This document shows positions 5,146-56,146 of a stretch of DNA of 64,000 nt, in pieces. The translations under genes were made by a program, and so were the position numbers. Where the stretch lies: the NCBI GenBank assembly GCA_049322655.1, contig JBMORP010000002.1:32923-96922 (forward strand), written 5' to 3'. Source of the stretch: Patescibacteria group bacterium (GTDB lineage: Bacteria; Patescibacteriota; Microgenomatia; UBA1400; PJMF01). The notes beneath the pieces are model-generated. The model had not been told where the DNA came from. It saw only the letters and a list, made by a program, of their open reading frames with translations, and made no database searches. Positions within the stretch are counted from its first letter, which is position 1. Each line of letters starts with the position of its first letter.

Positions 5146-6837
5146 TTATTTTTTTCTAAAAAACATTTTTTCTAACTCTTGTTTGGAGATTTTTATTTTC
5201 AGAGGTCTGCCGTGAGGACAAGTATAGAGGGTATTTTTTTGAATAATTTTTTTAACTAGTTGTTGTCGCTCCACAGGTGATAAGTAGTCACCCGCTTTGA
5301 TTGCACTTCGACAAGCCAAAAAACTCAAGGCTCGATTGGTTAATAAATCAGGTTTGACAATCTTGCCATAGGTAGCAAGATCAACCAAAAAATCGTTGAT
5401 CACTCGGTCTATAGTTAAACCTTCAAAAATAACCGGGATTTCTTTAATAATAATTTGTTTGTCATTAATTAAAAAAATAAAACCTAAATTTTTAAAAATA
5501 GTTTTATTTTTTACAAAAAGATAAAGATTTTCTGGATTTAAATTTATTTTTTTATTAATTTTAACTTTTTTTTCTAAAAGTAGCTTATTTTTTTTCAATT
5601 GCTCAGAAAATTCTTGGTAAAGAATCATTTCATGAGCCGCATGTTGATCTACAACCATTAACTCGCCATGAAGTTCAAAAAATAAATAAGTATTTTGAAA
5701 TTGTAGAACCGGACCCAACTCTTGTTGATTGTTATTGATTTGCCAACCTGGTTGTAAGTTTTCTTTCAGATGGTCGGTAGTCGCTCTATCTCTTAACAGA
5801 TATGTTGCAGTTACTTGTTGTGAATTCAAAACATAAGTTAAGTCTTTGGCCAATAAAAATGCTTGTAAGTGTTCAAACAACGCTGTAATTAACTCATCTT
5901 CTTTAAAGATTAAAACCTCTTCTTTCCTTGGGTGAATATTACTGTCAAAAAAATGAGCTGGTAAATTAATAAATATAATAAAAACAGGATAAGCCTTTGG
6001 TTCTAATAATGAGCCATAGGCTTCTCGAATAACTTTGGCAATCTTTCTGTGTCGCACCATTCTGCCATTAATAAATAAGTATTGTTTGCTAGGGCTTCGT
6101 AGTGATAATTGAGGTTTCCCAACTAAACCACTGATTTTTAGTTCATTAGCTAAGTCAACTTTATAAGTCAAGCTTTGGTCAACAAATTCTTGACCAAAAA
6201 CCTCACTCACTCTGTCTGCAAAACTTGGCTGGGATAAAACTTCAAATAGTTTCCTTTGGTCATGATAGACAACAAATTGGACAGTATGATTAACCAAAGC
6301 AAAATTAGTCATTTTTTTCAGAATATAAGCTAATTCTCTTTGAACTTTATTAATAAATTTTTTTCTAGCTGGTAAACCACTAAATAAACTTTCAACTACA
6401 ACTCTAGTGCCAATCGGCATCCCAAATTTTTCATCTTCAGTTATTTGGCCATTCTGGATCACCAACCTATGACCTATTTTTTCAGTTTTTATCCGGCTTT
6501 CCAAGGTAACTTTGGCTACTGCTACCATACTCGCCAAAGCTTCTCCTCTAAAACCAAAACTAGTCAAAGTCTCTAAGTCTTCTAAATTGCTGATCTTACT
6601 AGTAGTATGAGCTAGAAAACTGTTTCTTAAATCAGTAGCATTCATTCCACACCCATTGTCACGAACCTCGATTCTTTTTAACCCACCTTTGTCCAAGTAA
6701 ATCTCGATTTTAGTTGCTCCCGCATCCAAAGAGTTTTCCACTAACTCTTTAACGACTGAATCGGGTCGATCGATTACTTCTCCAGCAGCGATTTTGCTTA
6801 CCACTTCAACTGGTAGTTTTTTAATTTTAGTTACCAT
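5146..6837 (-). CDS. mutL: DNA mismatch repair protein MutL
   Basis: GHKL ATPase N-terminus 'VVKELVENSLDAGATKIEI' and 'DNGCGM'. Overlaps the mutS stop by 11 nt, so the two form an operon. Confidence 0.9.
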   Translation of the reverse strand: MVTKIKKLPVEVVSKIAAGEVIDRPDSVVKELVENSLDAGATKIEIYLDKGGLKRIEVRDNGCGMNATDLRNSFLAHTTSKISNLEDLETLTSFGFRGEALASMVAVAKVTLESRIKTEKIGHRLVIQNGQITEDEKFGMPIGTRVVVESLFSGLPARKKFINKVQRELAYILKKMTNFALVNHTVQFVVYHDQRKLFEVLSQPSFADRVSEVFGQEFVDQSLTYKVDLANELKISGLVGKPQLSLRSPSKQYLFINGRMVRHRKIAKVIREAYGSLLEPKAYPVFIIFINLPAHFFDSNIHPRKEEVLIFKEDELITALFEHLQAFLLAKDLTYVLNSQQVTATYLLRDRATTDHLKENLQPGWQINNNQQELGPVLQFQNTYLFFELHGELMVVDQHAAHEMILYQEFSEQLKKNKLLLEKKVKINKKINLNPENLYLFVKNKTIFKNLGFIFLINDKQIIIKEIPVIFEGLTIDRVINDFLVDLATYGKIVKPDLLTNRALSFLACRSAIKAGDYLSPVERQQLVKKIIQKNTLYTCPHGRPLKIKISKQELEKMFFRKK

Positions 6838-9451
6838 TTTTCTTAAATTTAGTTATTAATGCTGCCAACTTTGTTTGAGCTTGTAGGGGAGTAAGTTGCT
6901 CAATCTCTATTGCAGCTAGAAACTTCTCAAGCTTCAGTAAATTTTTATCTTTAGTTGGTTTATTAAACTTAAAGTTAGTCTCTACTTGACTCCTATTAGC
7001 TTCAAAAGAAAAAAGAATTTCTTCAGCTCGCTGACAAACTTCTTCAGGCACCCCAGCCAACCTCGCTACTGCTACTCCAAAACTATGGGGAGCGGCCCCT
7101 TCAGCGACTGTATGTAAAAACTTAGGTTGATCATCAGCTTCATCCACCAACATGTGAATATTACTGATTTTATCTGGGTACTTACTTTCTAACTGTTGTA
7201 ACTCATGGTAATGAGTAGCAAAGAGAGTAGTAGGACACTGTCGGCACTTACTTAATGCTTCAGCCACCGCCCAAGCCAAACTAATTCCATCATAAGTACT
7301 AGTACCACGGCCAACTTCATCCATAATAATCAAACTCTTAGCTGTAGAGTGCCGCAAAATATAAGCCACTTCAACCATCTCTACCATAAAAGTTGATAAC
7401 CCCTCTGAAATAACATCGGCCGCACCACTTCTCACAAACAAGCTATCAATTAAGTTGATTTCGGCCTTCTCAGCTGGCACAAAACTGCCCAAATGAGCCA
7501 ACAACACAATTAAAGCTATTTGCCTCATATAAACAGATTTTCCAGCCATGTTTGGCCCAGTCACCAGTAACATGTTTCTAGCTGGCACTCCCAATAAAGT
7601 ATCATTGGGCACAAACTGTTTTTTGACCAATAGTTGCTCAAGAACGGGATGTCTGCCTTGAACAATTGCTGTTTTACCAGTCTTAACCATTTTTGGTTTA
7701 ACATAGTTTCTTGTCTCTGCTAATTGAGCAAAACTAGTTAAACAATCTAGATTAGCCAAAGTGGTAGCTGCTTGTTGAATCAACTTAGTATATTCCAAGA
7801 CCTGATTAACAAAATTTTTAAAAAGTTGTTTTTCCAAAACTTCAATCTGTTCTTCAGCCGTTAAGACTTTTTCTTCGTAAACTTTCAAAGCTTTAGTAAC
7901 AAATCTCTCGGCATTAACTAAAGTTTGTTTACGTTCAAATTCCGCCGGAACTTTGCTCACAAATGATTTACTGACCTCAATGTAGTAACCAAAAACTTTG
8001 TTTGATCTAACCTTAAGAGTGGTGATTTGTGTTTGTTTTTTCAAGGTTTCTTCATACTCAGTTAACCAATCTTTACCACCCATAGACAAAACTCTGAGCT
8101 GATCTAACTCTGCACTCACTCCAACTTTGATTACTTTTCCTTCACCAGGAAGACCACTAGCATCATCTGCCACAAACTGCTCAATCAACTCAACTACTTT
8201 GAGCAATTGATTATCGATTTGTTGCTCAAATTTACTGAGTAGTTTGGGTAGCTGCTTTTGTTGACTCGCCAAAATTTCTCTAATCGCCAAAATGTTAATT
8301 AATGACTGTTTAAGATTGATGACCAAAGCAGGCAGAGGCTCTTCAATCGTTAACCGAGCAATAATTCTTTCTAGATCAAAAACTTGGTTTAACTCGTTTC
8401 TAATAAAAAATCTAAGCTCTCTGTTATTGAGTAAATAATCAACCGAATCATGCCTAAGTTCAATCTTTTCCCTGTTCTTAAGTGGGTGAGTAAGCCAATT
8501 GCGTAATAACCTGGAACCCATTGGTGAAACAGTTAAATCAATCGCGGTTAATAACGAACCTTGTTTTTTATTTTCCCTAATAGTTTCAAAAATCTCTAAG
8601 TTATTAATGGTTGATGAATCTAAAGCAATATATTCATCAGATTTTTGTAAATTAAATGTCTTTAGATGTTGTAGTTTATTAAACTGAGTTTCAGTTAAAT
8701 AACCCAAAATAGCAGCCAAAGCTTGTTTGAGCGCTGGCTTACTATGTAAACCAAAACTTCTTAAATTATCAACTTGAAAATGTCGGCTAATGATTGCCTC
8801 AGCTTCATCTGTATACTCATCCCATTGCCTAAAAGGATAAATATTTAACCCTACTTGCTGTTTTAAAATCTTTAATAATGAGTAGTTATGGTAATCAACC
8901 TCAGCTAAAATACACTCACTCGGTTGATACTTGGTTAATTCTTTTTGTAACAAATTAGCAAAGTCATTTCCTTTTAAATAATGGTTGCTCCCAAAAATTT
9001 CACCTGTCGACAAGTCCACAAAAACTAAACCCACAGCTTTGTTATCAATAGCCAAACTCAATATAAAGTTATTTTTCTTAGCACTCAGTGCTTGTTCATT
9101 TACTACTGTTCCTGGAGTAATAATCCTAATCACAGCTCGTTCCACAATGCCCTTATTATCTGGTTCAGAAATCTGTTCACAAATTGCTACCTTGTGACCA
9201 GCCTTAATTAATTTAGCAATATAACTTTCTGCTGAATGGTAGGGCACCCCAGCCATTGGGATCTCTCCATCTTTACCTCTTGGCCTTTTGGTTAAGGTAA
9301 TTCCGAGTAACTTGGCTCCAGTTAAAGCGTCTTCTAAAAACAGTTCGTAAAAATCTCCTAGTCGATAAAATAAAAAACAATCTGGATAAGCTTTTTTTAT
9401 CTCCAAGTACTGTTGCATCATTGGTGTAGAGAACTGTTGAACTTCTGACAT
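6827..9451 (-). CDS. mutS: DNA mismatch repair protein MutS
   Basis: N-terminal 'TPMMQQYLEIK'. Walker A 'VTGPNMAGKSVYMRQ', 'DEVGRGTSTYDG', 'FATHYHEL'. The likely start is the Met of 'MSEVQQF'; the ORF track extends to 9484. Confidence 0.9.
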   Translation of the reverse strand: MSEVQQFSTPMMQQYLEIKKAYPDCFLFYRLGDFYELFLEDALTGAKLLGITLTKRPRGKDGEIPMAGVPYHSAESYIAKLIKAGHKVAICEQISEPDNKGIVERAVIRIITPGTVVNEQALSAKKNNFILSLAIDNKAVGLVFVDLSTGEIFGSNHYLKGNDFANLLQKELTKYQPSECILAEVDYHNYSLLKILKQQVGLNIYPFRQWDEYTDEAEAIISRHFQVDNLRSFGLHSKPALKQALAAILGYLTETQFNKLQHLKTFNLQKSDEYIALDSSTINNLEIFETIRENKKQGSLLTAIDLTVSPMGSRLLRNWLTHPLKNREKIELRHDSVDYLLNNRELRFFIRNELNQVFDLERIIARLTIEEPLPALVINLKQSLINILAIREILASQQKQLPKLLSKFEQQIDNQLLKVVELIEQFVADDASGLPGEGKVIKVGVSAELDQLRVLSMGGKDWLTEYEETLKKQTQITTLKVRSNKVFGYYIEVSKSFVSKVPAEFERKQTLVNAERFVTKALKVYEEKVLTAEEQIEVLEKQLFKNFVNQVLEYTKLIQQAATTLANLDCLTSFAQLAETRNYVKPKMVKTGKTAIVQGRHPVLEQLLVKKQFVPNDTLLGVPARNMLLVTGPNMAGKSVYMRQIALIVLLAHLGSFVPAEKAEINLIDSLFVRSGAADVISEGLSTFMVEMVEVAYILRHSTAKSLIIMDEVGRGTSTYDGISLAWAVAEALSKCRQCPTTLFATHYHELQQLESKYPDKISNIHMLVDEADDQPKFLHTVAEGAAPHSFGVAVARLAGVPEEVCQRAEEILFSFEANRSQVETNFKFNKPTKDKNLLKLEKFLAAIEIEQLTPLQAQTKLAALITKFKKNGN

Positions 9452-9522: not shown

Positions 9523-9549
9523 TTAGCAGTCACTTCATTTTATTGCTAA
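9523..9549. promoter_or_regulatory. CIRCE-like inverted repeat TTAGCAGTC-N9-TATTGCTAA (left end of repeat copy A)
   Basis: Same TTAGCA-N15-TGCTAA architecture as the sites upstream of clpB and lon and at 30451. Confidence 0.5.
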
Positions 9550-9685
9550 TTAGCTTTTCTTGAGAAAAAAATTGATATATCAATCTTGTTTTATGATATG
9601 TTTTGATATTGTTTGATAACTATAAATATATTTGTCAGATTAATATGAGACACTTACCCTCGGGGTGAAAGGGGGTGGAGTGAAA
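9523..9685. repeat. ~160-nt composite repeat element, copy A (CIRCE-like palindrome, then TTGATATATCAA, then an AT-rich core, then a GC-rich hairpin end)
   Basis: Aligns along its length with the reverse complement of 30324-30477. Shared blocks are 'ttagcagtcactt', 'attgatatatcaat' and 'tgagacacttaccc.cgggg..aaagggg.tgg'. Confidence 0.7.
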
Positions 9686-9735: not shown

Positions 9736-10443
9736 ATGCCCAATATGAAAAAACAAAGCTTACTTTTAGTGGTTCTGGCCTTTTTATTGGTCGGAGTAGT
9801 TGCCCTAATTATTGAAAAAAACAATAATAAAAATACCACTTCGCTGGAAGAACAGGTTCTGACTTTTCCCAGCAAAAGCCCAACTGTAGTACCAAGTATT
9901 AAACCAATCACAAAGGAATCAATGAAAAAACAATATGATAATCCTCCTGCTATGCAACTTGATAGCACCAAAAAATATCAAGCAACAATGACTACTTCAG
10001 AGGGAGTAATTGTCATTGAGCTTTATGCCGATCAAACCCCTCAAACAGTCAATAACTTTGTTTTTTTGGCTAACGATAAGTTTTATGATGAAACTATCTT
10101 TCACCGAGTGATTAATGGTTTCATGATCCAAGGTGGTGACCCAGAGGGGACAGGAATGGGTGGCCCAGGTTACCGTTTTGCCGATGAAAAATTTACAGGT
10201 GAATACACTCGTGGCACGATCGCCATGGCTAATGCTGGACCAAATACCAATGGCAGTCAATTCTTTATTATGCATCAAGACTATCCATTGCCACCCAACT
10301 ATGTAATTTTTGGTAAAGTGATAAATGGTTTAGAAGTGGTTGATAAAATTGCCACTGCACCAGTCTCAATGAGTTTATCCGGTGAAAAATCTCAACCAGT
10401 TAAACCAGTAACCATCAAGTCCATCACCATTAGTGAAAACTAA
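9736..10443 (+). CDS. ppiB: cyclophilin-type peptidyl-prolyl cis-trans isomerase, membrane-anchored or secreted
   Basis: 'HRVINGFMIQGGDPEGTGMGGPGYRFADE' and 'NGSQFFI'. N-terminal hydrophobic segment. Start placed at MPNMKKQ behind RBS 'taggga'. Confidence 0.85.
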   Translation: MPNMKKQSLLLVVLAFLLVGVVALIIEKNNNKNTTSLEEQVLTFPSKSPTVVPSIKPITKESMKKQYDNPPAMQLDSTKKYQATMTTSEGVIVIELYADQTPQTVNNFVFLANDKFYDETIFHRVINGFMIQGGDPEGTGMGGPGYRFADEKFTGEYTRGTIAMANAGPNTNGSQFFIMHQDYPLPPNYVIFGKVINGLEVVDKIATAPVSMSLSGEKSQPVKPVTIKSITISEN

Positions 10444-10469: not shown

Positions 10470-10499
10470 TAGCCCGCTTCACTGCGGGCTATTTTTTTA
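10470..10499. terminator. bidirectional terminator hairpin between ppiB and korB
   Basis: tagcccgc-ttcact-gcgggcta followed by T8. Confidence 0.65.
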
Positions 10500-11357
10500 T
10501 TTAAACTCGTTAAGTGTCTCAGCAATAGAAACTTGAGTCGGACGCTGTTGCAATAAGGTTGCAGTATCAAGTTGGTATAACTGTTGATGGTAAGCCTCTA
10601 AGTTGTCGTTTCTATAAAAAACACCAACTGGCATTTTTTCTATTTCTTGAGATTTTTCCCAAGCTAATTTTTTATCATTGGGTTGATAGCTATCAGCTAA
10701 CTTATAAATTCTTTCTTGGTACCACTGGTAGGTGTTGATTTTATTGAAGGTTGGACAGGGTTGTAAAACATCCAATAACGAAAAACCATCATAAGTCATT
10801 GCTTCTTTAACCAAACCAATTAAATGAGGCATATCTCCAGCATAACCACGAGCCACAAAGCCAGCGTGGTCCGAAAGAGCTAACGCTAAAGGATTAACTG
10901 GCTCCTCAATCAAACCGTCTGGGGTTGATTTGGTTTTTATTCCTTTATCGGTAGTGGGAGAACTTTGACCAGTAGTCAAACTGTAAGTTTGGTTATTATG
11001 AACCAAAACAGTAATATCATGGTTTCCTCTAGCTGCTGAGAGTAAATGATTCATCCCTTCACCATAAGTATCTCCATCTCCAGCAACAACAATAATCTTC
11101 AAATCATGGTTAGCTAGTTTAGCACCAATCGCATTGGGAATAGCTCGACCATGAAGAGCATGAAAACCATAAACTTTATTAAAGTCAGCCATATTGCCAC
11201 TACAACCCACTCCATAAAAAACTACCAAATTTTCTTCAGGCAATTCTAATTGAGCAAAAGCTTGTCTAATCGCCCCTAGAATACCAAAGTTACCACAGCC
11301 TGGACACCAAGTTGGTGTAACTGAGGAGACTGTGCTTTGTAAAGTAATATTTGCCAT
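10497..11357 (-). CDS. korB: 2-oxoacid:ferredoxin oxidoreductase beta subunit (TPP-binding)
   Basis: 'WCPGCGNFGIL' and 'GDGDTYGEG' thiamine-diphosphate binding motifs. Confidence 0.85.
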   Translation of the reverse strand: MANITLQSTVSSVTPTWCPGCGNFGILGAIRQAFAQLELPEENLVVFYGVGCSGNMADFNKVYGFHALHGRAIPNAIGAKLANHDLKIIVVAGDGDTYGEGMNHLLSAARGNHDITVLVHNNQTYSLTTGQSSPTTDKGIKTKSTPDGLIEEPVNPLALALSDHAGFVARGYAGDMPHLIGLVKEAMTYDGFSLLDVLQPCPTFNKINTYQWYQERIYKLADSYQPNDKKLAWEKSQEIEKMPVGVFYRNDNLEAYHQQLYQLDTATLLQQRPTQVSIAETLNEFK

Positions 11358-27344: not shown

Positions 27345-30323
27345 ATGAAGAAAAATTCATTAGATCATATTATTATTTCTGGTGCTAGGGAACATAATCT
27401 TAAAAATGTTTCTTTTGCTATTCCCAAAAATAAACTAGTTATTTTTACTGGTCTTTCTGGCAGCGGTAAAACCTCTTTAGCTTTTGATACTTTGTATGCT
27501 GAAGGACAACGACGCTATGTTGAGTCTCTGAGTTCTTATGCTAGGCAATTTTTGGGCATTATGCAAAAACCTCAGGTTGACCAAATTGAAGGTTTATCGC
27601 CAGCTATTTCCATTGATCAGAAGACGACTTCCCATAATCCTCGCTCTACCGTTGGTACTATTACCGAGATTTATGATTATCTCAGGCTACTATTTGCCAG
27701 AGTAGGCCACCCACACTGTCACCAATGTGGTCTAGAAATTAGCACCCAAAGTATTGACCAAATTATCAAACAAATTATTGACTTAGTTGAAAAAAAAGCA
27801 GCTAATCAACCAACTAGACTCATGATTCTTTCACCAGTTGTTCAGGCTAGAAAAGGTGAGTTTGCTGCCTTATTTACTAACCTACAAAAACAAGGCTTTA
27901 CCAGAGTCAGAATTGACGGTGAAGTCTTTGACCTGTCAGAGAATATTACTTTATTAAAAAACAATAAACATACGATTGAAGCAGTTGTTGATCGGATCAG
28001 TTTTTCTAAAAAACAATTGAATGATCACCAAGAACTAAAAACTCTCAAATCTAGACTTTCACAAACCATTGAAGAATCATTAAAACTATCAACTGGTTTG
28101 GTAATAGCCAGTTTTATTGACGACAATTCTTTATCATTTCCAGAAAAACCCAAACAGATGGAAGATCACTTATTCAGTGAAAAACTCGCCTGTAGTGATT
28201 GTGGTATTTCTTTAAAAGAACTTGAACCAAGAATGTTTTCTTTTAATTCTCCAGAAGGAGCCTGTGAAACTTGTAATGGCATTGGTTCATTACTCAGAAT
28301 TAACCCAGAAAAAATCATTGCTCCCAGCTTAACGCTGAGCGAAGGTGCCATTATTCCGTTTGCTAGAACTATGAGCAATGACACTTGGTGGTCAAGATTA
28401 GTGAAGGTAGTGGTCGAAACAGCCGGCTATGACTTCAGAAAAACTCCTTATGAAGAATTTAGTGATGAATTTAAACAAAGCTTGCTTCATGGTTCCAAAG
28501 AAATCTACAACGTGACTGGCGAAAATCGATTTGGTAAAGAAACCATGATTCAAGAGAGATTTGAGGGTTTCATTACTAATTTGGAAAGAAGGTATCAAGA
28601 AACTGACAGTGATTACATCCGTAAAGAAATTGAAGAATTCATGCACAAAGAGACTTGTCCTGCTTGTCAGGGCAACAGGTTAAAACCAGAATCTTTGGCT
28701 GTAACAATTGATCACAAAAATATTGCCGATACAACCAACTTAACTATTCAACGAGTTTTGGACTGGTGTAAATCTTTGACCGCAAGTAAAAAACTATCTA
28801 CCAAAGAAACTGAAATCAGTGGCTCGATTTTAAAAGAAATTATCACCAGATTAAGCTTCTTATCTTCTGTTGGACTTAATTATTTGTCACTTGGTAGAGA
28901 AGCTTCTACTTTGGCTGGTGGTGAGGCCCAAAGAATCAGATTGGCTTCGCAAATTGGAACTGGTCTAACTGGAGTGCTGTATATTTTAGATGAACCAACT
29001 ATTGGATTACACCCCAGAGATAATGATCGGTTAGTCGATACTTTAAAAAACCTAAGAGACCAAGGTAACAGCGTGATTGTAGTTGAACATGATCGTGATG
29101 TGATGTTATCTGCTGACTATATTTTTGATTTCGGTCCTGGAGCTGGTAAACATGGTGGAGAAGTTGTTGCTGAGGGAACACCTGAAGAACTAATGGCAGC
29201 CAAAAAATCTGTAACTGGCAAATACCTCTCCCGTAAAAAAGATGTCATTAGACCCAAGAGGGCTGAAGAAAGAAAAGTGATTGGTCTAGATGATATGCCA
29301 GTTATCAGAGGAGCTAATGGTTCGATTCAACTGCGAGGAGCATCTCATCACAACCTAAAAAACATTGATGTCGAGTTTCCACTCAATTCCTTAACTTGTA
29401 TTACTGGTATTTCTGGTTCAGGAAAATCTACTTTACTTCATGACACTCTTTACTATCAATTAATGAAACACCTAGAAAGAAAAATCGATGAAAAAGCTGG
29501 TCATGTTGAACAAGTAATGGTGCCTGATACTGTTAAACGCTTAACTTTAATTGATCAAAGTCCAATTGGTAAAACCCCCCGCTCTAATCCTGCTACTTAT
29601 ACTAAGATCTTTGACTATATTAGAAAACTTTTTGCCAATACCCAGGAAGCTCACATTCGCGGTTACAATCCAGGTAGATTTAGTTTTAATGTTAAAGGCG
29701 GCCGCTGTGAAACTTGCCAGGGGGATGGCCAAATCAAAATCGAGATGCAGTTCTTACCTGATGTTTATGTCACTTGCGATGTCTGTCATGGTCAACGCTA
29801 TAATGAAGAAACTCTCCAAGTAATTTATAAAGGCAAAAATATTTCTGAAATCTTAAAAATGAGTGTTGAAGATGCTTTGGAATTCTTTAAAAGTAATGGA
29901 ACCTTGAAACAAAAACTCCAAACTTTAATTGATGTTGGCTTGGGCTACTTAGAACTTGGCCAACCAGCTCCAACCTTGAGTGGTGGAGAATCTCAAAGGG
30001 TTAAGCTAGCCCGTGAACTAAGTTTAAAAACTAATGATCATGTGGTTTACCTATTAGATGAACCAACTACTGGGTTGCATTTTGCTGATGTGCAAAAACT
30101 ATTAAATGTTTTACATAAATTGGTTGCTCAAAACAATACCGTGATTTTGATTGAACACAATCTGGATGTCATTAAGAATGCTGATTGGTTAATTGATCTT
30201 GGTCCTGAGGGTGGAGAATATGGCGGTGAAATCATTGCCATCGGAACACCACAACAAGTAGCTAAAAATAAAAACTCATTTACTGGTAAATATTTGGCTG
30301 AAGAATTTAAAAACCAACACTAA
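27345..30323 (+). CDS. uvrA: excinuclease ABC subunit A (UvrA)
   Basis: 'IIISGAREHNLKN'. Two ABC cassettes ('GLSGSGKTSLAFD', 'GISGSGKSTLL'). Zinc-finger Cys pairs. 'LSGGEAQRIRLA' and 'LSGGESQRVKLA'. Confidence 0.9.
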   Translation: MKKNSLDHIIISGAREHNLKNVSFAIPKNKLVIFTGLSGSGKTSLAFDTLYAEGQRRYVESLSSYARQFLGIMQKPQVDQIEGLSPAISIDQKTTSHNPRSTVGTITEIYDYLRLLFARVGHPHCHQCGLEISTQSIDQIIKQIIDLVEKKAANQPTRLMILSPVVQARKGEFAALFTNLQKQGFTRVRIDGEVFDLSENITLLKNNKHTIEAVVDRISFSKKQLNDHQELKTLKSRLSQTIEESLKLSTGLVIASFIDDNSLSFPEKPKQMEDHLFSEKLACSDCGISLKELEPRMFSFNSPEGACETCNGIGSLLRINPEKIIAPSLTLSEGAIIPFARTMSNDTWWSRLVKVVVETAGYDFRKTPYEEFSDEFKQSLLHGSKEIYNVTGENRFGKETMIQERFEGFITNLERRYQETDSDYIRKEIEEFMHKETCPACQGNRLKPESLAVTIDHKNIADTTNLTIQRVLDWCKSLTASKKLSTKETEISGSILKEIITRLSFLSSVGLNYLSLGREASTLAGGEAQRIRLASQIGTGLTGVLYILDEPTIGLHPRDNDRLVDTLKNLRDQGNSVIVVEHDRDVMLSADYIFDFGPGAGKHGGEVVAEGTPEELMAAKKSVTGKYLSRKKDVIRPKRAEERKVIGLDDMPVIRGANGSIQLRGASHHNLKNIDVEFPLNSLTCITGISGSGKSTLLHDTLYYQLMKHLERKIDEKAGHVEQVMVPDTVKRLTLIDQSPIGKTPRSNPATYTKIFDYIRKLFANTQEAHIRGYNPGRFSFNVKGGRCETCQGDGQIKIEMQFLPDVYVTCDVCHGQRYNEETLQVIYKGKNISEILKMSVEDALEFFKSNGTLKQKLQTLIDVGLGYLELGQPAPTLSGGESQRVKLARELSLKTNDHVVYLLDEPTTGLHFADVQKLLNVLHKLVAQNNTVILIEHNLDVIKNADWLIDLGPEGGEYGGEIIAIGTPQQVAKNKNSFTGKYLAEEFKNQH

Positions 30324-30477
30324 CCACACCCCTTTACCCCCGTGGGTAAGTGTCTCACAGCTGGCTGACAACAAACTTAATATATAAAACAATATCTAAA
30401 TCTATCAAAAATAAAATTGATATATCAATGTTTTACTCGAGAAGATAATATTAGCAGTCACTTTTAATATCTGCTAA
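30324..30477. repeat. ~155-nt composite repeat element, copy B (inverted relative to copy A)
   Basis: GC-rich hairpin end 'cacccctttacccccgtgggtaagtgtctca', then 'attgatatatcaat', then TTAGCAGTC-N9-ATCTGCTAA. The final motif overlaps the last codons and stop of coaDE. Confidence 0.7.
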
Positions 30478-46132: not shown

Positions 46133-47667
<1,535 letters not shown>

Positions 47668-47812: not shown

Positions 47813-47840
47813 AACCCTCATTAATCGAGGGTTTTTTATT
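47813..47840 (+). terminator. terminator 150 nt after 16S
   Basis: aaccctc-attaatc-gagggtt followed by T6. Confidence 0.6.
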
Positions 47841-48174
47841 TGAAAATTAGTACATTAATTAATAATATTCTTTAGATTCATAATCTCGTCGATAAAATAA
47901 TTAGAGTGTAGAAAACTATCTAACAAATCTCCTCAGATTCACTTTTTAAAATTTTTGTTAATAAATATAATTACTATCTAAAAACCAACAATTACTTATA
48001 GGTTTTTAGCAGACAATATATTTAACTGCTAATTTGAAACAATAAAAATAAACAACCATTCATCAATCCTTTTTCATTGATATTTTAAGATATCTTTTGA
48101 TTTGTTTTTATATATTTTGTTAGATAAAATGACTAGTTTAATCACAGCAGGCAATTTCCACCTTGAATCTCTTT

Positions 48175-48201
48175 TTAGCAATGATATATAATGATTGCTA
48201 A
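48175..48201. promoter_or_regulatory. CIRCE-like operator TTAGCAATG-N9-GATTGCTAA upstream of clpB
   Basis: Same length and spacing as the HrcA CIRCE element (TTAGCACTC-N9-GAGTGCTAA). A -10-like TATAAT sits inside it. Lies 34 nt before the clpB ATG. Confidence 0.5.
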
Positions 48202-48234: not shown

Positions 48235-50802
48235 ATGAATTTAAATCGTTTTACTACTAAATCTGCTGAAGCTATTCAGGGCACCATGCAGTTAGCTGGC
48301 AAATTAAAACATCCTGCCATGCAACCTTTGCACCTTTTCTTAGTTCTAGTAGAACAACCTAATGGATTAATTCCATCTTTACTCCAAAAACTAGAACAGG
48401 ATTTGGCTGCTTTAAAATTAAAAATTAAAGATAAACTCTCAACTCTTCCTACAACTGATACAACTACTCAAGCCTATGTTTCACCAGAGCTCCAACAAGT
48501 CTTGGCTAAAGCAGAAACAGAAGCAGGCAAACTCCGAGATGAATACATTAGTACTGAACACTTATTTTTAGGTTTACTAGATAACCAAGAAATCAAACAG
48601 TTAATTGACTTAGACAAAAAAGCTGTCTTGGAAACATTGAAAAAAATTAGAGGCAACCAAAAAGTAACTGATCCAGATCCAGAAGGTAAATACCAAGCCT
48701 TAGAAAAATATACTCAAGACTTTACTGAGCTGGCCAAACAAGGAAAAATCGATCCAGTCATTGGTCGAGATGAGGAGATCCGACGTATTACCCAAATTCT
48801 TTCTAGAAGAACTAAAAACAACCCAGTGCTAGTCGGAGAACCGGGTACTGGTAAAACAGCGATTGTTGAAGGTCTAGCCAAAAAAATCGTTGACCATGAT
48901 GTACCAGATGTATTAAAAAACAAAAAAATCCTCAATCTGGATATGGGAGCGTTAATTGCTGGCGCCAAATATCGTGGTGAGTTTGAAGATCGCCTCAAAG
49001 CTGTCATTAAGGATATTGAAGCCGCTGATGGTGAAATCATTTTATTTATTGATGAACTTCATACTATTGTTGGTGCAGGCGCTCAAGAAGGCTCAACTGA
49101 TGCTGGTAACTTACTCAAACCAGCTCTTGCTCGTGGCAAACTCAGAACTATTGGGGCAACTACTTTAAAAGAATATCGAAAATACATCGAAAAAGATGCT
49201 GCTTTGGAGCGCCGTTTTCAACCAGTCATAGTGGAAGAACCTTCAGTAGATGATTCACTTTCGATTTTACGAGGTATTAAAGAAAAATATGAAACTCACC
49301 ACGGTGTCAAAATCCGTGACAACGCTTTAGTTGCTGCCGTCAAACTTTCTCATCGTTATATCGCTGATAGATTCTTACCAGATAAAGCCATTGACCTCAT
49401 GGATGAGGCTGCCTCAGCCATTAGAATCGAGATTGAAAGCAAACCAACCATCATTGATGCTTTGGAAAGAAAAATTCGCCAACTAGAAATCGAAAAAGCT
49501 GCTTTAACCAAAGAAAAAGATGATCAAAGTAAAGAGCGACTCAAAGAAATAGAAAAAGAAATTGCTGAACTAACCGAGAAACACAAGCAATTAGAACTTC
49601 ATTGGCAAGCAGAAAAAAATACTATTGATAAAATCAAAAAATCCAGCAAACAAATCGATGAACTCAAAGAACAAGCCATTCAAGCTGAGCGTAATTACGA
49701 TTTACAAAAAGTGGCAGAAATCAACTATGGCAAAATTCCAGAGTTAGAAACTGCAATAAAAACAGCTAAAGCAGAATTGAAAAAGATTCAAACTAATCAA
49801 AAAATCCTCAAAGAAGAAGTTACTCAAGAGGATATTGCCCGAGTTGTAGCCCGCTGGACCGGTATTCCAGTCGAAAAAATGCTCGCTGAAGAGGGCGATA
49901 AATTAACCAAACTCGAAGATGAAATTGCTGAGCGAGTTGTTGGTCAAAGAAAGGCCATTGTTGCCGTAGCTAATGCTATTCGTCGCAATCGAGCTGGCAT
50001 AGGTGAGGAAGGGAAACCAATCGGTTCTTTCATCTTCATGGGACCAACTGGCGTAGGTAAAACAGAGCTAGCCAAAACTTTGGCTGAAGTACTGTTTGAT
50101 GATGAAAAAATGATGATCAGAATCGATATGAGTGAATACATGGAAAAACATTCTGTGGCCAGATTAATTGGTTCACCTCCCGGTTATGTTGGCTATGAAG
50201 AGGGTGGACAATTGACTGAAGCAGTTAGACGCAGACCATACTCGGTCATTTTATTTGATGAAATAGAAAAAGCCCACCATGATGTTTTTAATACCTTGCT
50301 TCAAGTTTTAGATGATGGCAGATTAACCGATAGTAAAGGCAGAACAGTTGATTTTAAAAACACCGTGATTATTATGACCTCAAATCTGGGCAGTGAACTA
50401 ATTGCCGACTTTAAAGACGAGCCAATTAAACAAGAACAAGAAGTTCATAAATTACTTAAACAACAATTCAGACCAGAATTCTTGAATCGAATTGATGATA
50501 TTATTATTTTCCAACCACTAGCTGAAAAAGAAATCACCAACATTGTTGATCTTCAAGTTTCAGAATTGAAAAAAAGGCTTAAAGAAAATAAAAATATTGA
50601 GCTCATTGTTTCAGCTAAAGCGATTAAATATTTTGCAAGTGCTGGTTATGACTCAATCTTTGGTGCTAGACCACTGAAAAGACTAATTCAAAAAGAGCTC
50701 TTAGATCCGCTCTCTTTAGAAATTATTCAGGGACAAATTAAAGAAGGTGACAAAATAAAAGCTGAGTTTGATGGTCGAAAAATTACTTTTAAATCAAGCT
50801 AA
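48235..50802 (+). CDS. clpB: ATP-dependent chaperone ClpB
   Basis: Two AAA+ modules ('GEPGTGKTA', 'GPTGVGKTE') separated by a long coiled-coil middle domain. 855 aa. Confidence 0.9.
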
Positions 50803-53691: not shown

Positions 53692-53718
53692 TTAGCAGAC
53701 AAAAATATAGAATGCTAA
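53692..53718. promoter_or_regulatory. CIRCE-like operator TTAGCAGAC-N9-GAATGCTAA upstream of lon
   Basis: Same TTAGCA-N15-TGCTAA architecture. Lies 22 nt before the lon ATG. Confidence 0.5.
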
Positions 53719-53740: not shown

Positions 53741-56146
53741 ATGAGCGGGATATCTGAAAAAACTACCTCAGACCAACCAACTAATTTACCAACTAGTAGT
53801 AACTTACCGGTTGACCAATTAAAACTACCAGTTGTGCCTCTCAAAGAGGGTATTCTATTTCCAGCCACTGAATCGGTTTTGACTTTTGGGAGAAAAATTT
53901 CTTTAACTGGTCTTAAAGCGGCTACCCAAAATCCCAAAAAACTGGTAGTCCTAGTGGCACAAAAAAAAACCTCAATTATTAATCCTAAGACCAAAGACTT
54001 ATATGACATTGGCACTTTGGCAGTGGTAGAAAGAACCATCAAAACTGATGACACTGTTAATGCTCTGGTAAGGGGAATTGGTAGAATCAAAATTCAACAG
54101 TTTACCCAAGAAAAACCCTACTTGGAGGCAAATGTCAATAGAGTTAGAGATATTGAATTAAATGATGATGAAACCAAAGCACTAGCTAACCATTTACAGA
54201 AATCATTCCGTAAAACAGTGCAAATGGGCAAACCAGTTGAATTTCTTAATTTCATGAAATTACTAAGTGGAGTTAGAGCTGGAGAACTAGCTGACCAAAT
54301 TGCCAGCACCCTAAATTTATCAACTCAAATTAAACAATCAATCCTGGAAATTATTGATGTTAAACAAAGACTAAAAACTGTTGCTGACCATCTTTCTAGA
54401 GAAATTAAAATCTTGGAAATAGAGAAAGATGTGGTTTATAAAACTCAAGAAAAATTTGATAAACACATGCGAGAAAGTGTCTTAAGAGAAAGACTAAGAA
54501 CCATTCAAAAAGAACTTGGTGAGATCGATGACGAAGATGAGTTGGCTGACTCGTATCTAACCAAATTAACTAAGCTAAAAGTCAATCAAGATATTAAAAA
54601 AACCATCAAAAAAGAAATCAAACGCCTAAGACAAATGTCTCCAAACAACCCAGAGACTGGTTACATCCGCTCTTGGCTCGATATTATTTTTGATTTGCCT
54701 TGGGGTAAAACTTCTCAAGAAAAAGTTGATCTTAAACAAGCTCAAAAGGTTTTGGATTTGTATCATTATGGTTTGGAAGACGTAAAAGATAGAGTTTTGG
54801 AGTACATTGCTGTTTTGCAACTTAAACAAAAAAACAAAGCCACAGAAAACGATGCTACCCCAACTATTTTATGTTTTGCCGGTCCTCCAGGAGTAGGTAA
54901 AACTAGTATCGGCAAATCTATTGCCCAAGCTCTTGGTAGAGAGTTTATTAAAGTTTCACTAGGGGGAATTAGAGATGAGGCTGAAATCAGAGGCCATCGC
55001 AAAACTTATGTCGGAGCCATGACCGGTAAAATTATTGCAGGTATTAAACAAGCCAAAACCATGAACCCAGTCTTTATGTTAGACGAAGTTGATAAGATTG
55101 GTAATGACTTTCGTGGTGATCCAGCAGCTGCTTTACTAGAGGTATTAGATCCAGAACAAAATAAAGAATTCGTTGATCACTACTTAGACCTTCCCTTTGA
55201 CCTATCAAAAACCATTTTTATTACTACAGCTAATACTTTGGATACTATTCCGCCTGCTCTCAGAGATCGTTTGGAAATCATCAATTATTCTGGTTATACC
55301 CACGAAGAAAAATTCAATATTGTTAAAAAACATTTATTAGCAAAGGTCATCAAAACCAATGGCCTAAAAGAAGAAAATATTGAGCTAGCAGATGAAGTCA
55401 TTAATAAAGTGATTAGTGGCTATACTAGGGAAGCTGGAGTCAGAAACCTGGAAAGAACTTTACACACTATTGCCAGAAAAATAGCTAAAACTCTGGTGCT
55501 TAACCCCAAAAAGACAAAAGTTGTTGTGAGTAGCAAAGATCTTAAAAAATTTCTTGGTCCACAGAAATTTGATGATGGTCTTGCAGAGAAAAAAGACATG
55601 GTTGGGGCAGCCACCGGTCTGGCTTGGACAGCTGTGGGCGGCGATATTCTTTTTGTTGAAGTAGCTTTAGCTCCAGGTAAAGGCAGGATCCAAATTACTG
55701 GTCAGCTAGGTGAAGTGATGAAAGAATCAGCACAAGCTGCCTTTACTTATGTCAAAGCCAACCTAAAAAAACTTGGTATTAGTGAAAACAAAATCAACAA
55801 AACTGATATTCATATTCATGTTCCTGAGGGAGCCGTCCCTAAAGACGGACCTTCAGCAGGCGTAACTTTGACTACCGCGATTGTTTCTGCCTTTACTTCT
55901 ATCGCTGTAAAAAGAACTGTAGCCATGACTGGCGAAGTGACTTTAAGAGGCAAAGTATTGAGAATTGGAGGCCTAAAAGAAAAATCAATTGCGGCTCACC
56001 GAGCAGGAATCACCACGGTTATTATTCCTCAAGAAAACGAACGAGATCTAGAAAAAATACCGAAATCAGTCAAAAAATCAGTTACTTTTAAACCAGTTTC
56101 CTCAGTAGATGAAGTGTTAAAACTAGCTCTGACAAAAACTCTTTAA
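53741..56146 (+). CDS. lon: ATP-dependent Lon protease
   Basis: LON N-domain, AAA+ 'GPPGVGKTS', S16 protease 'DGPSAG' with 'K' in 'LKEKSIAAHRAG'. Confidence 0.9.
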   Translation: MSGISEKTTSDQPTNLPTSSNLPVDQLKLPVVPLKEGILFPATESVLTFGRKISLTGLKAATQNPKKLVVLVAQKKTSIINPKTKDLYDIGTLAVVERTIKTDDTVNALVRGIGRIKIQQFTQEKPYLEANVNRVRDIELNDDETKALANHLQKSFRKTVQMGKPVEFLNFMKLLSGVRAGELADQIASTLNLSTQIKQSILEIIDVKQRLKTVADHLSREIKILEIEKDVVYKTQEKFDKHMRESVLRERLRTIQKELGEIDDEDELADSYLTKLTKLKVNQDIKKTIKKEIKRLRQMSPNNPETGYIRSWLDIIFDLPWGKTSQEKVDLKQAQKVLDLYHYGLEDVKDRVLEYIAVLQLKQKNKATENDATPTILCFAGPPGVGKTSIGKSIAQALGREFIKVSLGGIRDEAEIRGHRKTYVGAMTGKIIAGIKQAKTMNPVFMLDEVDKIGNDFRGDPAAALLEVLDPEQNKEFVDHYLDLPFDLSKTIFITTANTLDTIPPALRDRLEIINYSGYTHEEKFNIVKKHLLAKVIKTNGLKEENIELADEVINKVISGYTREAGVRNLERTLHTIARKIAKTLVLNPKKTKVVVSSKDLKKFLGPQKFDDGLAEKKDMVGAATGLAWTAVGGDILFVEVALAPGKGRIQITGQLGEVMKESAQAAFTYVKANLKKLGISENKINKTDIHIHVPEGAVPKDGPSAGVTLTTAIVSAFTSIAVKRTVAMTGEVTLRGKVLRIGGLKEKSIAAHRAGITTVIIPQENERDLEKIPKSVKKSVTFKPVSSVDEVLKLALTKTL

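Follow-up and report, generated by a model that had tools for sequence, protein, structure and literature searches.

The 64,000-nt stretch of contig JBMORP010000002.1 that was analyzed here (the window) contains a repeat of ~160 nt in two copies, A and B. Copy A is located between mutS (6827-9451, minus strand, with its ATG at 9451-9449), which is divergent from it, and a downstream gene on the plus strand (9736-10443) that encodes a cyclophilin-type peptidyl-prolyl isomerase (PPIase). All homologs of this PPIase carry PF00160, and the ortholog of mutS at the related locus L022 encodes the domains MutS_I-V. Copy B fills the spacer between the stop codons of two convergent genes, uvrA (30321-30323) and a coaD-coaE fusion (coaDE; 30451-30453). 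The host belongs to the candidate phyla radiation (Patescibacteria), in which almost nothing is known of gene regulation, and the nearest named relatives of its proteins are from Woesebacteria and Pacebacteria.

The plus strand of 9523-9685 aligned blockwise to the reverse complement of 30324-30477, as a sequence-only reading of the window had claimed. The block positions and the identities of the flanking genes were confirmed, and a blastn search of the window with copy A recovered copy B with 76.5% identity over 136 nt (E=4.4e-21). In copy A, the blocks are TTAGCAG...TTGCTAA (9523-9549), ATTGATATATCAAT (9571-9584), TGAGACACTTACCCTCGGGG (9646-9665), and a G-rich end that extends to ~9682; the corresponding blocks on the minus strand of copy B are at 30477-30451, 30429-30416, and 30357-30338, and the copy ends at 30324. 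The same reading held that a shared 14-17-mer could not be due to chance, which is wrong for this DNA: repeated 14-mers numbered 183 in the window versus 68 in dinucleotide shuffles, repeated 17-mers numbered 7 versus 1.3, and the 14-bp palindrome ATTGATATATCAAT by itself had no significance within the window. Since shared k-mers alone are insufficient, the significance of the pair comes from the collinearity of its blocks. For the GC-rich 20-mer (with one N), 0 chance matches are expected.

Judged by its sequence, the repeat is the junction of two separable elements with different histories, namely an AT-rich module of ~110 nt, termed M1 (9523-9631 in copy A; 30372-30477, minus strand, in copy B), and a GC-rich core of ~50 nt. 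The view of a single ~160-nt element did not hold, because in the sister species sp3 (Logan contig SRR31802804_446; L017 and L024) M1 is found at the A and B loci alike and neither of them carries the core, so that the two are separate modules. The M1 copies of sp3 retain TTAGCAG-N13-CTGCTAA, CTYGAG-AAAA, ATTGAT(A/G)TATCAAT, and the TGATAT boxes at both loci, and neighbor-joining trees of CoaDE and PPIase placed sp3 outside the core-carrying clade. Overall, five or more related species of Patescibacteria, one of them without the core, were found to have M1 at the two loci. The M1 copies showed identities of 70-83% between A copies, 69-79% between B copies, and 61-72% between A and B, which indicates an old duplication in which both copies are constrained, with little sign of ongoing homogenization. 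Concerted evolution of A and B was rejected, as the A-B identity within genomes (70-72%) is barely above that between species (61-72%). Copy B is read as an old paralog of M1 in the coaDE-uvrA spacer, with no protein gene after it.

M1 was absent in three cases from more distant relatives, one of which concerned the mutS-PPIase region. In the second, coaDE and uvrA are convergent and share 4 nt (L031, 1494-1497), and both the spacer and M1 are missing. The third has a coaDE-uvrA spacer without M1 (L019, 3509-3856) that contains a near-consensus promoter, TTGACA-16-TATATT with a TG; this promoter overlaps a long palindrome, ATTGATATAT-N7-ATATATCAAT, and is followed by a 92-aa open reading frame (ORF) with no Pfam family in the gene table.

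CIRCE-type sites and the architecture of M1

CIRCE, an inverted repeat that controls the expression of chaperones, is bound by the HrcA repressor in other bacteria, and an operator that encloses the -10 hexamer, with the -35 hexamer just upstream, is the usual way in which HrcA blocks RNA polymerase. The first block of M1, TTAGCAGTC-N9-TATTGCTAA, is a predicted CIRCE-type operator, as it agrees with the CIRCE consensus, TTAGCACTC-N9-GAGTGCTAA (PMC4245973, PMC7464140), at 15 of 18 arm positions. CIRCE/HrcA belongs to class I heat-shock regulation (Zuber and Schumann 1994, as cited in PMC4245973), and in Mycoplasma gallisepticum, CIRCE sites are located at clpB, dnaK, lon, and dnaJ (PMC4245973).

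The first block recurs at three other places in the window, two of them noticed on reading the sequence (48006-48032 and 48175-48201) and one found by a pattern search (53692-53718). The copy A operator (9523-9549, no strand; TTAGCAGTC-ACTTCATTT-TATTGCTAA), the second clpB site, and the lon site each have 3 mismatches in the 18 arm positions; three such sites were present in the window versus 0.02 expected. The copy B operator and the first clpB site have 4 mismatches each, yet both match TTAGCA-N15-TGCTAA exactly, and this pattern occurred five times without mismatch in the window versus 0.42 expected with one mismatch allowed. The copy B operator (30451-30477, no strand) reads TTAGCAGATATTAAAAGTGACTGCTAA on the minus strand and overlaps the last nine codons of coaDE and its stop. 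Copy B had been described as lying exactly between the uvrA and coaDE stops; it does fill the spacer and abut the uvrA stop, but its first block extends into these coaDE codons. The copy A operator is kept in three orthologs (L022, L024, and L009), and the L024 version, TTAGCAGTCT...AGACTGCTAA, forms an inverted repeat of 10 bp without mismatch. The copy B orthologs L008, L017, and L030 retain TTAGCAG-N13-CTGCTAA.

The region upstream of clpB (48006-48201, plus strand) is a third and weaker M1-like region composed of site 1 (48006-48032), an AT-rich stretch (48062-48132) that was also matched by copy A in the blastn search (73.6% identity over 72 nt, E=1e-3), and site 2 (48175-48201). It is collinear with M1, since a CIRCE-like site is followed by an ATCAAT/TTGATAT stretch and then by TATATATTT. 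The ORF downstream of both sites (48235-50802) carries ClpB domains. The remaining site (53692-53718, plus strand) is located 22 nt before the start codon of an ORF with Lon domains (53741-56146). Site 2 of clpB encloses the -10 of TTGAAT-18-TATAAT and the lon site overlaps TTGTCT-17-TAGAAT, so that at both promoters the -10 hexamer (TATAAT and TAGAAT, respectively) is within the repeat and the -35 is immediately upstream. The CIRCE match, the occurrence of the same operator type on the clpB and lon promoters, and the collinearity of the clpB region are the grounds on which M1 is read as a heat-shock element. Of the identities proposed earlier for the whole repeat, a shared regulatory module therefore fits 9523-9631, with its CIRCE-type operator, its clpB and lon counterparts, and its conservation across species, but not the core that makes up the last ~50 nt.

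Upon comparison with known CIRCE/HrcA systems, we found the window sites to be similar but not identical. The 9-bp inverted repeat, the 9-bp spacer, and the outer TTAGCA...TGCTAA are the same, the site overlaps the -10 at clpB and lon, and, as in Mycoplasma, a small regulon in a reduced genome includes clpB and lon. In contrast, the window arms are TTAGCAG(T/A)C rather than TTAGCACTC, and sites A and B are 55-80 nt upstream of an AT-rich promoter-like region and not on a chaperone promoter. Location at a chaperone or protease promoter was found for clpB and lon; copy A neighbors cyclophilin, a folding catalyst, and mutS, whereas site B has the end of a gene on either side. No HrcA and no groESL/dnaK sites have been seen for this organism. 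The CIRCE type is a known kind of regulatory site, here in a phylum for which the searched literature holds no such report.

The remainder of M1 in copy A begins with a CTTGAG-AAAAAA block followed by the 14-bp palindrome ATTGATATATCAAT (IR2, 9571-9584), which together form a candidate second operator (9559-9584, no strand); TTG.T..ATCAA and CT.GAG are invariant across eight M1 copies from five species. On the plus strand of 9594-9632, TGATAT/TGATAA boxes recur with a 10-nt period (9594, 9604, and 9614), and TTGATA-18-TATATT (9603-9632), a match to the promoter consensus, faces the core and the PPIase gene; it has counterparts in copy B and its orthologs. A promoter-like TTCTCA-18-TAAAAT on the minus strand (9537-9566) faces mutS and has its -10 within the CIRCE-like site, a layout like that at clpB and lon, and is ill conserved among orthologs. 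The corresponding part of copy B (30372-30450, minus strand) contains CTCGAG-TAAAAC, the palindrome (30416-30429), TGATAG/AGATAT boxes, and TTGATA-18-TATATT (30408-30379).

The CTTGAG(T) and CTCGAG motifs beside the CIRCE-like sites (9559-9565 and 30436-30441) resemble half of HAIR (an inverted repeat associated with HspR), the operator of HspR, which is CTTGAGT-N7-ACTCAAG (PMC7464140). The conserved CTTGAG(T) is 10 nt past the CIRCE-like site, and heat-shock promoters of Campylobacter and Helicobacter offer a parallel in that they combine HrcA and HspR sites. However, M1 has a single half-site, and a full HAIR site was rejected because its matches in the window were at chance level (5 versus 3.8 expected).

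Because the clpB and lon promoters carry the same type of operator, the cyclophilin gene that follows copy A is probably a member of their regulon. This assignment is favored by the clpB-like arrangement and by the rightward TTGATA-18-TATATT. The divergent mutS may be a further target or the target instead of it, favored by the shorter distance and by the leftward TTCTCA-18-TAAAAT with its -10 in the operator. In sp3, mutS-mutL is missing beside locus A and M1 is kept (L024, 4164-4585, compared with L022, 5162-10001). There, M1 is located between the PPIase gene and a gene for a 72-aa protein, which elsewhere ends the mutS-mutL unit; therefore, synteny cannot settle the target of copy A. The repeat had also been associated with DNA-repair genes. 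Copies A and B do flank mutS and uvrA, but other copies of the core are located at unrelated genes, and the persistence of M1 at locus A without mutS-mutL contradicts such a link as a general property. A regulon of DNA-repair or nucleotide-metabolism genes was likewise rejected, as the genes that flank core copies are too mixed.

The GC-rich core in related genomes

Core copy A (9632-9682, plus strand) reads TTGTCAG-ATTAATA-TGAGACACTTACCCTCGGGG-TGAAA-GGGGGTGGAGTG and scored 65 bits with a covariance model; orthologs are present in L009, L022, L026, and L028. Core copy B (30324-30371, minus strand) has its 3' end directly against the uvrA stop codon. The general layout is TTGTCAG-N7-TGAGACACTTACCCACGGGG-loop-GGGGTGTGG. 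Outside the orthologs of A and B, only these ~50 nt are common to the copies, i.e., TTGTCAG, seven variable bases, TGAGACACTTACCCACGGGG, a purine-rich loop of 4-5 nt, and GGGG(N)GTG. The core constitutes a lineage-specific family of ~50-nt GC-rich intergenic repeats that was previously undescribed.

A pattern scan of 185,579 species genomes gave 12 exact matches of the 20-mer, all in two metagenome-assembled genomes (MAGs) of this clade, to one of which the window DNA is ~94-95% identical. At least 7-8 copies were found in CAYSQA01 and at least six in CAYPPX01, every one of them intergenic. The search for more copies that had been suggested thus yielded, besides the third M1-like stretch and the extra operators, at least ten core loci beyond A and B in related genomes, confined to one narrow clade in the searches made. 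At least five core loci are orthologous between two species that differ by ~22% in DNA. Diverged copies are present in L006, L022, L026, and L028. Independently of the 20-mer, protein-anchored look-ups gave diverged copy A orthologs (TGAGATGCTTGCCCACGGGG in both L022 and L028; TGAGATGCTTCCCCAAGGGG in L026) as well as an exact core copy at locus B of L030. Two covariance models revealed no further copies in ~270 kb (the window and related loci). A metagenome scan with the 19-mer gave four matches, none with the flanking architecture of the core, that were judged to be chance, three of them being clearly GC-rich (62-65%) coding sequence. The 19-mer had no match in viral contigs, copy A had no blastn match in phage and plasmid collections, and a full-text literature search for a core 15-mer returned nothing.

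The genes that neighbor core copies include dut, tmk, ndk, radA, smpB, and genes for VanW-like, Phd/YefM-like, type IV secretion system (T4SS)-pilin-like, TraG/VirD4-like ATPase, and HlyD-like proteins and for a tRNA. At all seven loci that could be judged, the core is nearer to the stop of the gene on the strand opposite to the motif than to the gene on the other side. The usual layout on the sense strand is a gene stop, the core as its reverse complement, a promoter, and the next gene; this is reversed at copy A and at the dut locus. In a systematic scan, a sigma-70-like promoter within ~50 nt upstream of the core was found only at the M1-linked copies A and B and the orthologs of B. Locus J has one at 61 nt, and loci C-I have none within 120 nt in the forward direction; the promoters found at F/H and G point away from the core, towards the next gene.

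The core can form a hairpin, P1 (UUACCC, triloop ACG, GGGURR; 9654-9659 with 9663-9668 in copy A), in every copy, with 90% of positions paired. In a covariation alignment of 17 rows, one of them a weak match, which was fitted to the structure, the fourth P1 pair (10-20) is A-U in six sequences, G-C in two, C-G in one, and A.G in seven. Double-sided changes occurred in 9 cells versus 3.4 +/- 1.4 in column shuffles. The folding of both copies, proposed earlier together with a look for compensatory changes, therefore gave a divided result, with one pair that shows three Watson-Crick types, against an outer helix, P2, that is just 59% paired and energies like those of shuffled sequence. Rfam 15 gave no family at the gathering score for either locus, including guanidine-II mini-ykkC, which has ACGR loops, and at E up to 10 returned only chance matches to models of eukaryotic small nucleolar RNAs and long non-coding RNAs. 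No terminator was called at core copies A or B.

The ~10 copies per genome resemble repetitive extragenic palindromic (REP) sequences and the bacterial interspersed mosaic elements (BIMEs) that they compose. The core is a short, imperfect, multi-copy, extragenic palindrome, located mostly by gene 3' ends and between convergent genes, in either orientation, with several copies per genome in a narrow lineage, and it is capable of forming a hairpin. However, REP families differ from it: the core reaches just ~10 copies per genome, has no GTAG head or inverted doublets, and no gene for a REP-associated tyrosine transposase (RAYT) was seen, its stem is 5-6 bp, and its conservation is mostly outside the stem. 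Compared with REP doublets forming hairpins (REPINs), it has no GTAG head, no paired copies, and no transposase in the flanking genes scanned, no genome-wide RAYT search having been made. STAB-SD sequences and 5' stem-loops are mRNA stabilizers of Gram-positive bacteria. As in STAB-SD, the core carries a strongly Shine-Dalgarno-like segment, GAAAGGGGUG (the second G run and its flanks), that is complementary to the 3' end of the window 16S rRNA, CACCUCCUUUC, with one base bulged, and at copy A it would be in a 5' leader distant from the start codon; most copies, however, are outside 5' leaders. Tentatively, and at low odds when taken on its own, the core may function as a REP-like hairpin at transcript ends or in leaders that affects stability or termination. 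This is preferred to an RNA gene or a recent mobile element because of the mixed orientation, the extragenic sites near stops, the low copy number, and the orthologous retention.

Several other roles were rejected. A long hairpin around the whole core can be drawn at A and B and is not general, and for a switch between two alternative hairpins, both of which can be drawn, the energies are small and differ between copies. The sole 11-mer complementarity of the core to the 16S or another RNA of the window (at 10511) is a coding coincidence. Promoters of the sigma-70, sigma-54, extracytoplasmic function (ECF), or sigma-32 type inside the core were dismissed by eye on their hexamers and spacings, and a Ter-like replication site was dismissed as the GC skew of the window tracks gene orientation without a switch.

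The core also marks assembly breaks. Two assemblies end in a core copy or no more than 16 nt from one (L030, 4215-4257; L004, 1-66), as expected for a multi-copy repeat, and breakage of short-read assemblies at the core is a practical concern for MAG assembly in this clade. Two contig ends from MAGs that are ~22% apart in DNA (L004, 1-410, and L007, 1-410) are 100% identical and include a core copy, which points to an artefact of binning or assembly or to recent transfer. The two MAGs carry the label 'uncultured Pseudomonadales', although their proteins place them in Patescibacteria. Additionally, in L026 (677-1471), the automatic PPIase call (264 aa) begins at an ATG within the core, because in this species the forward frame is open into the PPIase gene.

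Proposed regulation and alternative readings

The explanation that we favor for the whole, and that we consider rather probable, is that M1 is a CIRCE-type heat-shock control region and the core a lineage-specific hairpin repeat. Active HrcA on the CIRCE-type operator would hold transcription down, and heat or unfolded protein would release it from M1. Sequence matches, copy numbers, conservation, the pattern of presence and absence, and gene contexts are what the analysis shows; we infer HrcA binding, heat induction, which way transcription runs, and whatever the core does. The operator would open M1 and be followed by the CTYGAG block, the TTGAT..ATCAA palindrome, the phased TGATAT boxes, and the -10-like TATATT. 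Copy A would drive the cyclophilin gene as part of a CIRCE regulon with clpB and lon, or alternatively mutS, and the core would act on RNA, as a REP-like hairpin in a leader or at a transcript end. At locus B, the core would be the sole product of a heat-regulated promoter. If true, this would amount to a minimal, mycoplasma-like CIRCE regulon of clpB, lon, cyclophilin, and an orphan site, and would give an uncultured group a concrete set of operators. Its unexplained parts are the orphan module between coaDE and uvrA and the attached ~50-nt repeat.

A number of results count against this explanation. A search with an approximate B. subtilis HrcA query did not find hrcA in 295 ORF segments (~270 kb, the window and related loci), and the literature search gave no report of HrcA or CIRCE in this phylum. 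The copy B operator, with its 4 mismatches, is at the 3' ends of two convergent genes without an obvious target, and its left arm is coding sequence. Measured from the copy A operator, mutS starts at a distance of 71 nt and the PPIase gene at 186 nt, which leaves the direction of control undecided, and the promoter-like matches are only consensus hits in AT-rich DNA that occur at about the shuffle rate. With respect to the core, P2 has the poor pairing noted above, the sole clearly covarying pair is A.G in 7 of 17 sequences and is at a third-codon position in two ORFs, and the folding energies were no better than those of shuffled sequence (z -1.8 to 0). The near-invariance of the 20-mer is partly an artefact, because copies were found by exact-match search. 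Finally, core copies point either way with respect to the adjacent genes; therefore, no single transcript-level role fits all loci.

The repeat had been suggested to be a small RNA or a mobile repeat resembling a miniature inverted-repeat transposable element (MITE). For the last ~50 nt, its dispersed multi-copy nature was borne out, but neither identity was established. The first of these survives best, and we still regard it as unlikely: the core would be a family of small regulatory RNA genes driven by the M1 promoter at A and B. At B, it would yield a free RNA of ~65 nt with a hairpin and a U run at its end, partly antisense to the uvrA 3' end, and at A, it would be part of the PPIase leader. 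Promoter-like TTGATA-18-TATATT/TATAGT ends 6-14 nt before the GTCAG of the core in A, B, and L008, and the predicted folds of copy B and L008 place all of the core within a longer hairpin, formed by different sequences in the two species, with UUUU after it. G.U pairs favor the forward strand, there is some covariation, and M1 is conserved at B though no protein gene is downstream; such a promoter, predicted to be heat regulated, would be a good spot for a regulatory RNA. However, the forward strand is antisense to both neighbors at most of loci C-J, and the scarcity of upstream promoters at these loci, the missing terminators and Rfam matches, and the non-significant fold energies all speak against an RNA gene. 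Known multicopy families of small RNAs, such as the cia-dependent small RNAs of streptococci and the Qrr RNAs, have a promoter or operator conserved at every copy and clear terminators. The core copies are like them in sharing a conserved core with variable flanks and in having a predicted regulated promoter directly upstream at two loci, and differ in that a nearby promoter is found at two of ~10 loci (that of J being weak and 61 nt away) and no terminator was called.

A bolder version, for which we would give somewhat lower odds again, is that the core is a new clade-confined class of Microgenomates RNA that at B takes the form of an RNA of ~65 nt, HrcA/CIRCE-driven, inducible by heat, and antisense to the 3' end of uvrA; together with the mutS-facing promoter, this would couple the heat-shock repressor to DNA repair. 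The arrangement on which it builds, a leftward CIRCE-overlapping promoter for mutS and a heat-regulated promoter facing the uvrA 3' end, is possible.

The core could also be a non-autonomous mobile element, either MITE-like or moved by its hairpin as in REP/RAYT and IS200/IS605, that spread in an ancestor and landed by chance next to M1; we think this quite improbable. The genomes that carry the core form a monophyletic group, and the sister species has it at neither locus. Over its full length, GTCAG included, the core behaves as an indel; an extra segment is located between two TTA triplets in L008 and the window, and core copies coincide with assembly breaks. The idea that the core inserted into a GTCAG...ATGA target already in place was rejected, as the multiple alignment places GTCAG within the indel. 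The core has no terminal inverted repeats of the MITE kind, its ends, TTGTCAG... and ...GGGGTGTGG, not being complementary, and non-conserved bases intervene between the TTA repeat at locus B and the conserved core. It has neither a GTAG motif nor inverted pairs, and no transposase domain was found in the flanking genes scanned. Moreover, the orthologous loci shared by the two divergent species give no sign of recent movement, and the spacer and loop have diverged while the 20-mer was kept, which argues for selection in place.

The left arm of the copy B operator encodes Leu-Ala-Asp of CoaDE; therefore, copy A may be a relic of a duplicated coaDE end and not a selected operator. Under this alternative, which we consider very unlikely, the first block would be a stem-loop at the coaDE 3' end, either a terminator or a coding relic, and copy A a segmental duplicate without regulatory meaning. 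The CoaDE of a distant relative ends in ...SFLKDF* at the position of this arm, the similarity of A and B continues for ~25 nt into the coaDE coding region, and the L024 repeat was called terminator-like. However, the same 27-nt architecture is present at the clpB and lon promoters, where there is no coaDE sequence, and the arm sequences are conserved beyond mere pairing. L017 keeps the right arm even though it is past an earlier coaDE stop codon, and copy A is retained at non-coding positions in four species.

A coding core, either as a reverse-strand C-terminal peptide, ..PxPxxPVGKCLxxx, reached by readthrough or frameshift or as a forward leader peptide, MRHLPTG, is hardly credible and was rejected for both strands: no copy has its reverse frame interrupted before a conserved TGA (complementary to TCA, the best-conserved part of GTCAG), three of the 20-mer substitutions are synonymous, and A or G precedes TGAGAC in all copies but one, giving ATG or GTG, but most copies lack a start codon for the reverse frame, which continues the frame of the upstream gene at 3 of 8 loci (uvrA, smpB, and one membrane-protein gene), a chance proportion, and is shifted between copy types by a 1-nt difference in loop length, while the forward frame diverges after seven codons and has no Shine-Dalgarno sequence upstream.

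Neighboring features

A canonical bidirectional intrinsic terminator, AAAAAAATAGCCCGCAGTGAAGCGGGCTAAATTATT, was found at 10470-10498, between the PPIase gene and the gene for the pyruvate:ferredoxin oxidoreductase beta subunit; the genome therefore uses ordinary terminators elsewhere. The 16S rRNA gene (46134-47667) has no 23S gene after it and is followed by a canonical terminator (47813-47833) and then by the clpB control region. At the universal 515F primer site, this 16S gene has unusual letters, GTGCCAGAAGCCTCGGTAA.

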